A DNA stretch of 40,000 bases from an uncultured Solirubrobacterales bacterium (GCA_963843305.1 CAWJJS010000001.1:1540804-1580803); one strand, 5' to 3'; positions 1,979-24,472 are shown, numbered from the stretch's first letter. A program made the numbers and translations. Notes: a model not told the origin generated them from the sequence alone.

Positions 1979-1988
1979 AATCGGGGCG
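1979..1988. repeat. Candidate att core copy A (AATCGGGGCG, same as the 3' end of tRNA-Pro)
   Basis: The identical 10-mer occurs in the same orientation at 10837-10846 and 24397-24406. The last copy covers the final 8 nt of the tRNA-Pro gene. Confidence 0.5.
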
Positions 1989-2027
1989 ATTGGTGGTGTT
2001 TGGCTTGAGCGCTGGCGATTCGAGGGG

Positions 2028-2050
2028 TCGTGTGCGGTTTCGTGAGCGGT
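2028..2050. repeat. Arm-type repeats, island 1 left arm (TCGTGTGCGGT t TCGTGAGCGGT)
   Basis: Two tandem copies at 2028-2038 and 2040-2050. They match the copies at 10665-10675 and 10699-10709. Confidence 0.55.
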
Positions 2051-2076
2051 CGGCGTCATGCCATCGACGCCGACCG
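2047..2076 (-). terminator. Stem-loop downstream of the 68-aa gene
   Basis: Perfect 11-bp inverted repeat CGGTCGGCGTC / GACGCCGACCG with an 8-nt loop. It lies 14 nt past the stop at 2090-2092 on the minus strand. No U-tract follows. Confidence 0.4.
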
Positions 2077-2089
2077 TCCACCTTCAGAC

Positions 2090-2296
2090 TCAGCTCGAAC
2101 CGTGTTCGCGCGCGTAGCGAAGCAGATCATCCATTGACGTAAGACCTGTCTGCTGCCTCAGAGTCTCAAGATGCATGTCGCTCCGGACGCCGAAATCGAC
2201 GCCGTATTTCTCCTCGATCGTCCCGACATTGGTGTCGCCGCGCTTACGACGCCACTCCCCGTTCTCGTCCCGACTGCGTTCCTGCGGATGACCCAT
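2090..2296 (-). CDS. Small hypothetical protein (68 aa)
   Basis: Strong RBS (GAAAGGAGG, 6 nt before the ATG). An AT-rich putative promoter region lies at 2297-2400. The gene sits between the att core and the integrase. No recognisable family. Confidence 0.6.
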   Translation of the reverse strand: MGHPQERSRDENGEWRRKRGDTNVGTIEEKYGVDFGVRSDMHLETLRQQTGLTSMDDLLRYAREHGSS

Positions 2297-2410
2297 AGGG
2301 GCCTCCTTTCATAGGTGAAATTATTGTTCTCAAGCTATCAAATGGTGCGGCAGCTTTTGCGAACATACGTTCTTGTATATGCGGCAGATTAGACCCCTCG
2401 TGGGACGCCC

Positions 2411-3524
2411 TCAAAACAAGGTCTGCTGGATCGGTTTCTCTGGCTCGCGCGGCTTGCGCTTCTCACGGGCATGAGAGGCGTATGCGCCGACGATGCGGTC
2501 GAGCGCTCGGCCCTTGTCGCGGTGTCCGTAGAGGCGGCGAACGAGGTTCCCGCCGTCCTGATGTCCGAGCGCGATGGCTACGTCCTCGGATGACATTTCA
2601 AGCTCGTTGACCATGTACCAGCCCGCGAAGTGTCGAGTGGCAAGGTAGAGGCTGCCTTCCCAGCTTGCGGCGGCCCTGACGGCCTTCCAGTGGTAAGCGC
2701 GGGAGCTTGGTGTCCAGTGCTCGCCGCGCAGCGAGACGAAGCAGAATTCACCCTCACGCGCCAGTGCCGGAGAGGGCGTCGTGGGCGTGTGTGGTCAGAG
2801 GTGCCTCGCGCCGCAAGTGATTCTTCGGCGTGTCGAACGCGCGGGTCGCGGCGCTGAACTGTTCGGCTACGACGATGCGGGCGCGGTCAAAGTCGATCCG
2901 CTCCCACCGCAGCGCGTCAAGCTCGCCGGGGCGAAGGCCGGTGAACGCAGCGACTTGCAACCACGCCGCAAACGACGGACACGCCAGTTTACGGGCGTGC
3001 GCGATGATCTCCCACACCTTCTGCTCGGTTGGTGGTTGCTGGTCGCGTCGGCCCTTGCCGCGTGAGATGCCGAGCTTCTGAAACGGGTTGCGGTCGATCA
3101 GCCGACCAGCCTTCACCGATGCCGCGTCGTTGAACATCGAAGACAGCCCCTGGACCGACCCGGCACGGCCACCACCGGCGAGCCAGTCGGCGACGATCTC
3201 ATCCCCGACTTGGATGATCGGGACATCGCGGTAGCGCGCGGCGAAGCTCTTGGTCAGCTCACGGCGGCGGATGTCGCTCGACTCCTTTGGGCGCGCGAAC
3301 AGCGGATCGGTTGTCCAGCGCTCCCAGAAGCTATGGACGGTCACGTCCCTTGCATGGACCGCCCCCAAACGCTCGCGCGCCTTCTCGCGCGCCCGCTTTG
3401 CTTCAGTCTTGGTCGCGAACGTGCCAGGGCCGCCAACGACCTTCGAGACGCTGAGGTTCTTCCCGGTCGCAGGGTCGTAGACCTGCGCTCGCCAGCGACC
3501 CGATGGGAGCCGTGTGACGCTCAC
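2411..3524 (-). pseudogene. Tyrosine integrase of island 1, single frameshift near 2755-2765
   Basis: GTG 3524 follows RBS GGGAGAGG and overlaps the xis stop (GTGA). The 5' part (VSVTRLPSGRWRAQVYDP..AAFTGLRPGELDALRWERIDF..) reaches TGA at 2754. The adjacent frame continues with REGEFCFVSLRGEHWTPSSRAYHWKAVRAAASW..ATRHFAGWYMVNELEMSSEDVAIALGHQDGGNLVRRLYGH, which holds the HxxR and catalytic Tyr regions. The length is 3n+1. Confidence 0.8.
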
Positions 3525-3709
3525 GCCGCCCTCTCCCGTTCCGAGGCCCAGGAGATAGCCGCAGACGGCCGGAAACGGCGCGTGCGACGTCCCCACGTCA
3601 CCGACGGCATCCCCTCGGCGACCATCCGATCCACCGTCGCCAAACTCACACCCATGATCGCGGCCAGCTCAGCGCGCGCTACGTAGCGCTCAGGCGCTAC
3701 AGGTTGCAC
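3521..3709 (-). CDS. Excisionase-type HTH protein (Xis) of island 1
   Basis: ..YVARAELAAIMGVSLATVDRMVAEGMPSVTWGRRTRRFRPSAAISWA.. is an excisionase/MerR-type HTH. Its stop overlaps the int start codon. The start (GTG 3709) is uncertain. Confidence 0.65.
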   Translation of the reverse strand: MQPVAPERYVARAELAAIMGVSLATVDRMVAEGMPSVTWGRRTRRFRPSAAISWASERERAA

Positions 3710-22542: not shown

Positions 22543-23082
22543 ATGCCCGTGAACGCTGTTGCTGTCGTCGTTTTCGGCGGCGTATTGGGCGGGGTTGTCC
22601 AGTGGCTGCTCGCAGAACGAAACCATAGGGTCGAGGGGCGAACGTCCGCGCGCGTAGTCGGGGATGTTTTGACGAGTGCTCTTATCAGGAACCATAAGCC
22701 CCAGATGAACCCTTTCAAGCCGATATTCATCGACTACGGTGCCTACGCCGTTGTCTGGGAGACCGAGCGCAAGGCGCTGGCCCGCGTCATGACGGCGAAC
22801 GACTACGTAGCGGTGTCCAAGGCGTTTGACGAACTGCGTACGCTCGGCAAGATGGAGGCTGTTGGGCGAGACCTGAACGAGGAGGTCTTTGGCTCGCTCT
22901 ACCACGCAGGCCAGGCATGTGAGTTCGCTCGGCGCGTCACCTGGAGGTATTCGCAGTCGCAACGAGACCGGATGGAGCGATGGGTCAGAAAGACACGCAA
23001 GGAGCGGGTCAGCAGTCGTGAGCTTCGCAAGCTCGACCGGCAGTGGCGGCAGGCTCGTGAGCAAGAACAGCGGGGAAGCTAG
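22543..23082 (+). CDS. Hypothetical 1-TM membrane protein (179 aa)
   Basis: The start is set at MPVNAVAVVVFGGVLGGVVQWLL (22543). It is divergent from the 2-TM gene. The C-terminal tail is helical and basic. Confidence 0.45.
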   Translation: MPVNAVAVVVFGGVLGGVVQWLLAERNHRVEGRTSARVVGDVLTSALIRNHKPQMNPFKPIFIDYGAYAVVWETERKALARVMTANDYVAVSKAFDELRTLGKMEAVGRDLNEEVFGSLYHAGQACEFARRVTWRYSQSQRDRMERWVRKTRKERVSSRELRKLDRQWRQAREQEQRGS

Positions 23083-23103
23083 CCGTACTTCCGGCAGCGT
23101 CCT

Positions 23104-23790
23104 TTACAGCGGTCGTATCGCCTCAACGACCTGGCGGGCAAACTCGCGGGTCGCAGTCAGCGATTTTGCGGCTTCGTCTCGCGTGACTCGGGCACCCTTG
23201 TGGATGAGCGCGTTGCGCCGCTCAACATGAGTGCGGTAGCCGTCCCATACGGCCTTCGGCTCACGGATGCTGCGCCCGGTCACGGCCTTCCAAACCTTTG
23301 GCCCTCTCTGGTCGAGCATCGTGTAGGACGTGAGAAGATCGGGGATGACCTGCGCGAGTTGTTCGGTGGCGTGGCGTGACACGGCGAACTGGATCGCCCC
23401 CTCGACTAGTAGCTCGCAAGCGGTTTGCGCTGCGACGACCGTGAAGTCGTAGTGCTCCTTGTCGTACATCTCTTCGGCCAGCACGAAGAACCGGGTCTGA
23501 TCCATACTGAACGTGACCAGTGGGTTGAGGGGCATGATCGCGGTGGGCTGCTCCCAAATCTCAGGTAGCCCCGCATGTGCGCGGAGGTCGGCATATATCT
23601 GTTGGGCTTCCTGCCCTGCCGACGTCACGGTGGGGGCTTCCACTTCGATCTGGACCTTGGCGGCGACCGGCACCCCGTCGATGTCGCCCGTGACGATCCC
23701 GGCGACACGATCATCCCCATAGGCGGTCGCATCCTCAAGCGCAGCCGCATCTTGGTCAGGTGCATCGAGCGTTATGAGATAGCGGGACAT
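23104..23790 (-). CDS. HEPN-motif protein (228 aa), candidate RNase
   Basis: The C-terminal helical domain ends with ..GYRTHVERRNALIHKGARVTRDEA.., which contains the canonical HEPN RNxxxH (Rx4-6H) motif. The N-terminal ~100 aa form an unrelated acidic domain. Confidence 0.55.
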   Translation of the reverse strand: MSRYLITLDAPDQDAAALEDATAYGDDRVAGIVTGDIDGVPVAAKVQIEVEAPTVTSAGQEAQQIYADLRAHAGLPEIWEQPTAIMPLNPLVTFSMDQTRFFVLAEEMYDKEHYDFTVVAAQTACELLVEGAIQFAVSRHATEQLAQVIPDLLTSYTMLDQRGPKVWKAVTGRSIREPKAVWDGYRTHVERRNALIHKGARVTRDEAAKSLTATREFARQVVEAIRPL

Positions 23791-23864
23791 GCCCTTGTGA
23801 GGATAAGTCGAGAGTCGGCGAACTGCCCCCCCAGGGCGCTAGTCTCGCGCTCCGTGAACCAGCC

Positions 23865-24146
23865 ATGACCATCCCAGCGGAGACCGGCCCTCTCGGTGCC
23901 CCCGACCGCCTTTCGGTTTGGCCCGTCGAGGGCGGACGCTACGGCCTGGACGCCACTTACCACGGCAGGACAGGCTTCGAGCGAGCCGAAGCACAACGAC
24001 AGCACCTTCAGGCCGCGAACCTCTCGGCGTCCGTCCGTCAGGAGTTGGGCGACGACTGGACGCTGCGACTCGGGCCTCTGACCCACAGCGCCGCCTGGGC
24101 GGCCATCGAAGCCTTCATCGGCCCGCCCGGTCCTCGTACGAGGTAG
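23865..24146 (+). CDS. Hypothetical protein (93 aa)
   Basis: GC3-rich codon pattern, divergent from the HEPN gene. No clear RBS and no recognisable family. Confidence 0.35.
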   Translation: MTIPAETGPLGAPDRLSVWPVEGGRYGLDATYHGRTGFERAEAQRQHLQAANLSASVRQELGDDWTLRLGPLTHSAAWAAIEAFIGPPGPRTR

Positions 24147-24244
24147 CCAGCGCCCCTCTCGGAGCCCGTCTCAGCCTCTCAGCGGCTAACCCGACGGCGG
24201 CCTCCTGTGGGTGTACCAGTTGTGCCCTACGGACCATCCCCTGT

Positions 24245-24289
24245 TTTCGGGAGCATGTTGCTCCCGAAATGCTCCCGAAAGCTCCGAGA
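24245..24289. repeat. Arm-type repeats, island 2 right arm
   Basis: TTTCGGGAGCA (24245-24255, inverted), then TGCTCCCGAAA (24259-24269), TGCTCCCGAAA (24270-24280) and a degenerate GCTCCGAGA (24281-24289). The core is the same as at 10900-10920. Confidence 0.55.
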
Positions 24290-24398
24290 CAGGGCGATTC
24301 AGACCGGGTACGGCCTGCACTCAATTGCACCCAGATTTAGCATATTTTGCAGGCTATTTTGCGCACTCCTGCACGTCGCTGCATCTTGCGTGTTGCAA

Positions 24399-24472
24399 TC
24401 GGGGCGCCCGGATTCGAACCGGGGACCTCGCCGACCCGAACGGCGCGCGCTACCAGGCTGCGCCACGCCCCG
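24399..24472 (-). tRNA. tRNA-Pro (anticodon CGG)
   Basis: The minus strand reads CGGGGCG TG GCGC AGCCTGGTA GCGC G CGCCG TTCGGGT CGGCG AGGTC CCCGG TTCGAAT CCGGG CGCCCCG A. This is a canonical cloverleaf with anticodon loop UUCGGGU. CCA is not encoded. The 3' end faces the islands. Confidence 0.95.

Follow-up and report, generated by a model that had tools for sequence, protein, structure and literature searches.

Why does the 3′ end of a single tRNA gene recur three times, in direct orientation, among a series of integrase genes? The question is raised by a stretch of 40,000 nucleotides from an uncultured Solirubrobacterales bacterium (GCA_963843305.1 CAWJJS010000001.1:1540804-1580803), which is called the window here and whose positions are counted from its first letter. 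Genomes are referred to by numbers, and G000 is the one that contains the window. We found that the region from about 446 to 24406 is best interpreted as a tandem array, in which three or more integrative elements have accreted where the tRNA-Pro(CGG) gene has its 3′ end. We put the probability of this interpretation at about 0.88. The units are island 2, next to the tRNA gene, island 1 behind it, and a remnant, island 0, beyond island 1.

The target of integration would be the tRNA-Pro(CGG) gene at 24398-24473 on the minus strand, the sole tRNA gene that ARAGORN found in the window. Its sequence is 100% identical in 10 relatives from the same genus. The islands lie to the left of the gene, and its 3′ end points toward them. 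The 10-mer AATCGGGGCG is present exactly, each time on the plus strand, at 1979-1988 (copy A), 10837-10846 (copy B) and 24397-24406 (copy C). Copies B and C have 11 nt in common (CAATCGGGGCG, at 10836-10846 and 24396-24406), and copies A and B have AATCGGGGCGA in common. Copy C is made up of the 3′ strand of the acceptor stem (7 nt), the discriminator base, an A, and another 2-3 bases downstream. To the right of copy B, the sequence AACGGTTCAAG loosely mimics the T-arm, short by one base. A preliminary description of this locus had reported the 10-mer, its 11-nt extension in copies B and C, the tRNA 3′ end in the last copy and the T-arm mimicry, and we confirmed all of them, the positions of the repeats exactly.

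Only 0.14 copies of AATCGGGGCG were expected in the window, and none of 100 dinucleotide-preserving shuffles contained three or more. In the 3.35-Mb assembly, the word has 12 copies on both strands, against the approximately 13.7 predicted from composition. Therefore, it is not a frequent word, a point on which the preliminary description had made the value of the repeat depend. Three copies on one strand within 22.4 kb far exceed the background, which is about 0.04.

What lies to the left and right of each copy recurs beside the same core in other genomes, and we therefore consider that all three copies are, as far as sequence comparison can tell, true attachment (att) junctions. Each internal core joins the distal arm of one unit to the proximal arm of the next, the units being in direct orientation, and every junction arm is conserved next to the same core elsewhere. 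Copy B separates the P arm of island 2 from an arm type that we call class N, and would be both attR of island 2 and attL of island 1. Copy A separates the distal arm of island 1 from another arm type, class K, and would be the junction of attR of island 1 with the next unit. Copy C would be the tRNA-proximal junction, attL of island 2, and the same junction was found in G342. Direct repeats of a tRNA 3′ end as flanks, like the 11-bp repeat of B and C and the 10-bp repeat of A, B and C, are likewise present in G342, G288, G293, G004 and G209. The integrases of the three units (intB, intA and int3, from the tRNA gene outward) are only about 27-32% identical pairwise. All three were found at the places noted in the preliminary description, one intact, one frameshifted and one a pseudogene. 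Its proposal of tandem accretion at tRNA-Pro(CGG) gained support from the pair G342 and G295, from G288, G293 and G004, and from the class-K comparisons, all of which are described below.

Island 2 (10847-24395, 13.5 kb) is bounded by the 11-bp direct repeat. A scan of species-representative genomes revealed a homologue of intB with 93% identity in G342, a metagenome-assembled genome (MAG) of an uncultured Solirubrobacterales bacterium. In this genome, the tRNA-Pro(CGG) gene, the core and the P′ arm are together 93% identical to the window. The element of G342 is about 12.4 kb long and collinear with island 2; a mosaic cargo with 75-97% identity is followed by the integrase gene, the P arm and a second CGCCCCGATT. 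Past this second CGCCCCGATT comes a terminator-like hairpin, which is the sequence found directly after the tRNA gene in G295. Because the distal core of G342 abuts the flank that directly follows the tRNA of G295, the two genomes represent the empty (G295) and the occupied (G342) states of one site, with the boundaries at the core. The comparison with related genomes that the preliminary description had proposed thus yielded both an empty site and shared boundaries. The DNA that flanks the tRNA gene in G000 is 87-89% identical to that of G342 (89%), G299 and G295, so these three genomes are close relatives of G000. In addition, taking island 2 out of G000 would restore the junction between the tRNA gene and class N that is seen in G288, G294 and G302. 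The whole of island 2 was not found among the 80 genus genomes searched, which are a sample of the genus and include many incomplete MAGs.

The two ends of island 2 carry what seem to be the arms of one attP. Within the P arm (10847-10921) are the T-arm mimic at 10847-10857, an inverted repeat of 7 nt at 10858-10874 and two copies of the 9-mer TGCTCCCGA. The P′ arm (24234-24395) has three further copies of TGCTCCCGA as arm-type repeats and several TGCA-rich repeats. These five are the only mismatch-free copies of TGCTCCCGA in the window. Those in the P arm, at 10900-10908 and 10911-10919, are 11 nt apart and lie between core B and the stop codon of intB. Those in the P′ arm, at 24247-24255 on the minus strand and at 24259-24267 and 24270-24278 on the plus strand, are 118-150 nt from core C. 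Across the genome, TGCTCCCGA occurs 31 times, and pairs within 60 nt of each other were found only at the two ends of island 2. Arm-type sites for an integrase, in the two arms (P and P′) of a single attP, would be expected to show this layout. The P arm is also kept in G342. The P′ arm is 93% identical in G342, beside the tRNA gene, and 86% identical in G299, beside a core of the tRNA-Pro(GGG) type.

The genes between the arms are those for an integrase, an excisionase-like protein, a replication initiator, a serine recombinase (broken) and paired Toll/interleukin-1 receptor (TIR) proteins, along with other cargo. The intact tyrosine integrase intB (10922-11965, minus strand, 347 aa) matches Pfam PF00589 Phage_integrase (1e-10) and the PHROG integrase family phrog_1 (3e-46), and the Arg, Arg-His and Tyr motifs were seen by eye in its translation. 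Upstream of intB, a small helix-turn-helix (HTH) protein (11949-12146, minus strand) is a probable excisionase; its match to Pfam HTH_17 is weak (E 0.0055), and it is conserved together with the integrase gene in G209 (63%). A replication-initiator-like protein of the O-like/HTH_36 type (12781-13683, plus strand) was recognized by PHROG replication initiation (7e-14) and Pfam HTH_36. The truncated large serine recombinase (13742-14506, plus strand) has a Resolvase domain and part of a Recombinase domain (Pfam, 9e-31), with a partial match to the NCBIfam CcrB/XisF-like model. Island 2 keeps what would be expected for excision, namely an intact integrase, a small HTH protein, both arms and a perfect 11-bp repeat, and it looks able to excise and to reintegrate.

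No FtsK/TraB-type translocase domain was detected in 21 open reading frames (ORFs) of island 2 searched with Pfam, 10 of them also with PHROGs, small ORFs not being scanned. Capsid, terminase and tail genes were likewise not found, and the PHROG matches in island 2 were confined to the integrase, the replication initiator and the serine recombinase. As neither conjugation nor virion genes were detected, island 2 is best described as an integrative, possibly mobilisable, element rather than an actinomycete integrative and conjugative element (AICE) or a prophage.

Two other stretches of island 2 had relatives elsewhere. At 13742-15051, the serine recombinase is cut off just after the Recombinase domain begins, and homologous DNA was found in G009 and G323 (78-80%); the stretch may be what is left of a further element inside island 2. 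Near the tRNA end, 23739-24124 is 83% identical to C1:2743809-2744208 of the same genome, beside a tRNA-Thr(CGT) gene. A core of about 260 nt from this segment recurs in at least 11 of the 80 genus genomes and gave no family match. It may be a small gene or a site typical of element ends.

The specificity of intB can be judged from its relatives. After G342, the next-closest integrase and excisionase pair (67% and 63% identity) was found in G209, which belongs to a different genus. The pair is part of an element of 6.6 kb in that genome, and the element has at its boundaries a direct repeat (15 bp) of the tRNA-Pro(GGG) 3′ end. The lineage of intB therefore targets tRNA-Pro 3′ ends. Most homologues of intB in 250 genomes of the family were not beside a comparable att site; the informative ones were that of G209 and, later, that of G342. 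A paralogous family with 50% identity to intB sits at the transfer-messenger RNA (tmRNA) gene. One member is in G000 itself (C1:1274420-1275448, L035), about 3 kb from the tmRNA gene, and a homologue of this paralogue in G136 is directly beside the tmRNA gene. It seems that this sister lineage targets ssrA.

Island 1 (1989-10835, 8.8 kb) has arms that are conserved in relatives, and its cargo was characterized by Pfam and PADLOC matches. It contains an operon of ubiquitin-like (Ubl), E2 and JAB-E1 genes with XRE and M78 peptidase genes, an AbiE pair, an HTH gene resembling xis, and a broken integrase gene, intA. The integrase pseudogene (2411-3596, minus strand; placed slightly shorter in the preliminary description) has one frameshift near 2767-2772, and its N-terminal part has a Pfam match. 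The frameshift was judged by tblastn with the intact homologue of G299, which matched in two frames. Homologues of intA are broken at different places in G000, G288 and G293, and the copy in G299 is intact.

The tRNA-proximal arm of elements of this type is class N (10750-10835). About 80 nt leftward from 10835 are found directly after the tRNA gene in G288, G294, G293, G299, G005 and G302 (alignment A2). We considered whether class N is the native flank of the tRNA gene. This was rejected, because class N lies inside a repeat-bounded unit in G288, G293 and G000; it is therefore an arm of the island-1 family of elements and not native chromosome. The distal arm, attR (1989-2062; alignment A1, 76% mean column identity), comprises the roughly 75 nt inside core A and ends at the core in G288, G293 and G004, in the last of these twice. 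In G288, the tRNA gene, the core, the class-N arm, a homologue of intA, the distal arm and a second core follow one another within 2.27 kb. In G293, a 6.8-kb unit of the island-1 type is directly at the tRNA gene. Pieces of island 1 show 91-93% identity in G299 and G294, where the flanks show 77-88%. Taken together, these comparisons indicate that island 1 is a discrete element.

An intact integrase of the island-1 type (384 aa) was found with the distal arm in G299 (L082:8320-10570). There the distal arm is joined, through a core of the tRNA-Pro(GGG) type, to a P′ arm of the island-2 type (86%), which is followed by CGGGAGCA repeats. This composite is without the cargo of island 2 and looks like a remnant or a mini-element. 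As its junction runs opposite to the order in G000, modules of the island-1 and island-2 types join at the core in either order.

Beyond copy A, a third unit (island 0, about 446-1978) comprises a class-K arm and a third integrase, int3. The preliminary description had this integrase pointing at copy A from the left; its position was correct, and we would only add that it belongs to a further remnant unit of the array. Therefore, the array contains at least three units. The pseudogene int3 (577 to about 1700, plus strand) has its 3′ end toward copy A and two frameshifts, near 1412-1419 and 1597-1605, which were judged against an intact homologue in G283. This homologue (84% nucleotide identity) shows the same convergent geometry beside the tRNA-Pro(CGG) gene itself. 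The class-K arm, directly outside copy A (1813-1978, 166 nt), starts exactly at the core in seven soil-metagenome contigs (alignment A3).

We also looked for a fourth core at the far end of int3. The candidate was rejected; only a 10-nt partial match was present, at 585-594, which falls among the initial codons of int3 and lacks conservation in G017. This match, GCCCCGATTG, agrees with the core in 10 of 11 positions, is in direct orientation and covers codons 3-6. The corresponding site is CCCCGATTG in G283 and is disrupted by synonymous changes in G017. The match may be a coincidence or a degenerate distal junction.

The homology with G283 ends at the start codon of int3, and homology of a toxin-antitoxin block, composed of Fic/Doc and ribbon-helix-helix (RHH) genes, starts at 445. 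The Fic/Doc toxin gene (54-467, plus strand; Pfam) has its RHH antitoxin gene just left of the window. The same block lies downstream of tRNA-Pro(CGG) in G004 and G291 (blastn, 81-83%). Going left, collinearity with the closest relatives is regained only outside the window, about 620 bp from its edge, where a conserved gene has its stop codon. The array probably extends left of the window, and even the left flank of the window sits after tRNA-Pro(TGG) in G299. The conserved block left of the array (L075, C1:1533000-1540174) includes an ORF of more than 1960 aa. It is about 33 kb from tRNA-Pro(CGG) in G295 and just after the tRNA-Pro(TGG) flank in G299. This block may be mobile in its own right; alternatively, flanks may have been exchanged between the two tRNA-Pro loci.

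The following mechanism would account for the array. Each element would have been inserted by a tyrosine integrase, with strand exchange within the shared core of 9-10 bp, CGCCCCGAT(T), which corresponds to the 3′ strand of the acceptor stem, the discriminator and 1-2 further bases. The G299 junction narrows the shared bases to CCCCGATTG. At both ends of island 2, the arm repeats TGCTCCCGA would be bound by the integrase intB, which would bind the core region through the T-arm mimic. Read outward from the tRNA gene, the layout is core C, island 2, core B, island 1, core A, the remnant and the Fic/Doc toxin-antitoxin block. Within island 2, it runs from the P′ arm through defence and other cargo, the replication initiator, xis and intact intB to the P arm; within island 1, from the class-N arm through Ubl-type and AbiE defence cargo and intA to the distal arm; the remnant consists of the class-K arm and int3. 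With one frameshift in intA, two in int3 and both arms of island 1 intact, islands 1 and 0 are att-flanked relics without a working integrase, of the type known as cis-mobilisable elements (CIMEs).

Identity to G000 was higher for the elements than for the flanks in G294 (93% versus 77%), G288 (84% versus 74%) and G293 (81% versus 69%), and the same was true of the int3 element in G283 (84% versus 74%). As the element DNA is closer between genomes than the adjacent core DNA, the comparison points to horizontal movement of the elements.

Several observations weigh against a tandem array of integrative elements. The identity segment is only 10-11 bp long. The searches of island 2 (Pfam, 21 ORFs; PHROGs, 10) left conjugation and virion genes undetected. 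The predicted attP junction of island 2 had no match in metagenome and viral collections, which says little either way. In other genomes and in metagenome contigs, the class-K arm is not linked to int3, and the far end of the int3 remnant has no full core copy. Composition gave no help either. The GC content is 0.607 in island 2 and 0.651 in island 1, the genome mean is 0.646, and the 5th percentile of random chunks of the same size is 0.603; the tetranucleotide distances of both islands were within their nulls. Both measures are thus inside the genome's own spread, and the skew in GC and k-mers that the preliminary description had put forward as a test did not discriminate the islands from the genome.

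For so short a core, the preliminary description had left room for chance. Three 10-mers would then recur coincidentally beside unrelated integrases, and with 12 genome copies the 10-mer is not rare in absolute terms. However, in addition to the result of the shuffles, both flanks of every copy are conserved beside the same core elsewhere. Alignments A1-A3 and the comparison with G342 thereby refute this explanation, to which we give almost no weight. More can be said for homologous recombination among the three tRNA-Pro arrays, rather than integrases, as the main builder or reshuffler of the array. All three tRNA-Pro genes of G000 have repeat-bounded islands with related arms, a two-component-system block follows tRNA-Pro(TGG) in G000 and tRNA-Pro(CGG) in G008, and the left flank of the window is found after tRNA-Pro(TGG) in G299. 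Yet the junctions are base-precise, their core of 10 bp is too short for RecA-dependent exchange to be efficient, and each unit has its own integrase and arms. We regard this as very improbable. Somewhat less improbable, though still a poor candidate, is a composite, or part of one, that was built in another genome and arrived en bloc through the outermost att sites by cis-mobilisation. Transfer of composite tandems has been documented (PMC5704250; PMC9513070), and the element DNA is more alike between species than the flanks. However, no searched genome has two of the three units together in this order, and single units stand at the tRNA gene in G288, G293, G283 and G342.

Stepwise accretion by integrases, which we prefer, has an order that is harder to read. 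The preliminary description assumed that the newest element is nearest to the tRNA gene. As a general rule this does not hold, because an incoming element can use either junction of the resident one and the final array will be the same; the structure does not record the order of arrival, which we infer from decay only. The decay itself agrees with the assumption. Counted outward from the tRNA gene, the frameshifts number 0 (intB), 1 (intA) and 2 (int3). Island 2 as the youngest unit is also favored by the presence of island-1-type cargo at this site in the close relative G299 (91%) and by the failure to find the whole of island 2 in the 80 genus genomes. Against certainty on this point, G342, another close relative, has an island-2-type element without island 1 behind it, and G299 joins the two element types the opposite way round. 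Both would suit a different history, in which island 2 was the first resident or has the same age as island 1, and island 1 and the remnant entered its distal junction, or the order was mixed. Given the decay gradient and the distribution of the two cargoes, we consider such a history unlikely, although it is the most serious competitor among those discussed.

The array is a product of a known process and involves no new mechanism; the same architecture is found here in a different, uncultured actinobacterial order. In Streptomyces ambofaciens, pSAM2 is an int-xis-rep integrative element at the 3′ end of a tRNA-Pro gene. Island 2 resembles it in its actinobacterial module of integrase, excisionase and replication initiator at a tRNA-Pro 3′ end. 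In contrast, the identity segment of pSAM2 is much longer (tens of bp), and the element has a conjugation gene, Tra (FtsK-like); neither feature was seen here. Accretion at one att site, decay to integrase-less relics, and tandems with distantly related integrases of the same specificity have been described (PMC5704250). At a tRNA-Arg hot spot of Streptomyces, one to three AICEs or defective AICEs have direct repeats of identical sequence on both sides and have integrases with 39-88% identity (Front Microbiol 2022, PMC9513070). The likeness extends to the actinobacterial host, the tandem arrangement at one tRNA gene, the identical repeats, the decay to remnants and the phage-resistance cargo (PMC9513070). 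Divergent integrases share a site in both cases, with about 27-32% identity here. The differences are that no TraB/FtsK-type gene was detected here, the target is tRNA-Pro, the repeat is 10-11 bp long and the host is an uncultured member of Solirubrobacterales.

The sequence of events is also that of ICESt1/ICESt3 and the CIMEs of Streptococcus thermophilus, where an element integrates and decays to an att-flanked relic without integrase, and the next element enters the att site (Genes 2017, PMC5704250). Islands 1 and 0 fit the definition of such CIME-like relics. The streptococcal elements belong to another phylum, have other integrases and target the 3′ end of a protein gene, whereas the target here is a tRNA gene. 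Moreover, cis-mobilisation was shown experimentally in that system, whereas the present array is known from sequence. In Dehalococcoides, genomic islands in tandem at ssrA (BMC Genomics 2011, PMC3146451) likewise integrate site-specifically at a gene for a small stable RNA. The target there is tmRNA, the host belongs to another phylum and the cargo is catabolic.

Through the comparisons, an integration hot spot is mapped to the base in an uncultured actinobacterial order from soil, represented by Solirubrobacterales MAGs, for which genetic tools are lacking. The map tells which of the neighboring genes in the window are mobile DNA. A predicted attP of about 240 bp, a tRNA-Pro core of 10-11 bp, an intact integrase and a probable excisionase together make a candidate integration tool. 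Defence genes of several kinds (Ubl-conjugation-type, AbiE, TIR and Fic/Doc) have been stockpiled through the stacking of small elements at one tRNA gene.

All three tRNA-Pro genes of G000 carry similar arrays. The tRNA-Pro(TGG) gene (L001:2842-12209; G000 C1:172841-182207) ends in the same CGCCCCGATTG. A second CGCCCCGATTG occurs 9.3 kb downstream and is preceded by TGAACCGTT, which gives 21 nt identical to 10835-10855 of the window. The interval contains genes for a two-component system, a lactonase, a methyltransferase and an FMO-like oxidoreductase, and no integrase gene; 3.2 kb of it are 89% identical to DNA after tRNA-Pro(CGG) in G008. A paralogue of island 2, which the 21-nt identity had led us to expect at this locus, was not found; beyond the junction there was no nucleotide similarity, and no integrase was present. 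The tRNA-Pro(GGG) gene (G000 C1:317334-329211) has its own 3′-end repeats about 5 kb (TCTCCCCGATTA) and 11.8 kb (CCTGTCTCCCCGAT) away, and its arms have the same types of GACCGCAG repeats and GCGAA repeats. With these repeats at the TGG and GGG loci, all three tRNA-Pro genes are stacked hot spots.

A pseudo-tRNA end of 19 nt, TGAAYCGTTCGCCCCGATT, was found in 53 soil-metagenome contigs (L089-L141). About two thirds of these matches have a conserved inner arm (GACCGCAG..CCGAAAACCGCAT..AGCC), and beyond the ends that bear TGAAYCGTTCGCCCCGATT comes an outer arm from one of a few classes that recur. In most of the contigs, homologues of the three integrases are not present nearby. Small elements that are mobilised in trans may be represented here.

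It is conceivable, though we would put it at somewhat below even odds, that in this soil lineage of Solirubrobacterales the three tRNA-Pro isoacceptor genes form one network of interchangeable att sites on CCCCGAT(T), used by several unrelated integrase families and by many integrase-less mini-elements that share the conserved 19-nt pseudo-tRNA end (TGAACCGTT plus core). The hints are the 21-nt junction at the TGG locus, the repeats at the GGG locus, the cargo block of G008, the left flank in G299 and the 53 contigs. If such a network exists, the tRNA-Pro loci would exchange defence cargo with one another, and even flanks of the chromosome.

Right of the tRNA gene, sequences of about 40-50 nt within 25423-25482 and 35525-35580 of the window match at least 20 sites on both replicons with 86-97% identity. 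They are members of a dispersed repeat family that is similar to repetitive extragenic palindromic (REP) sequences or to terminators.

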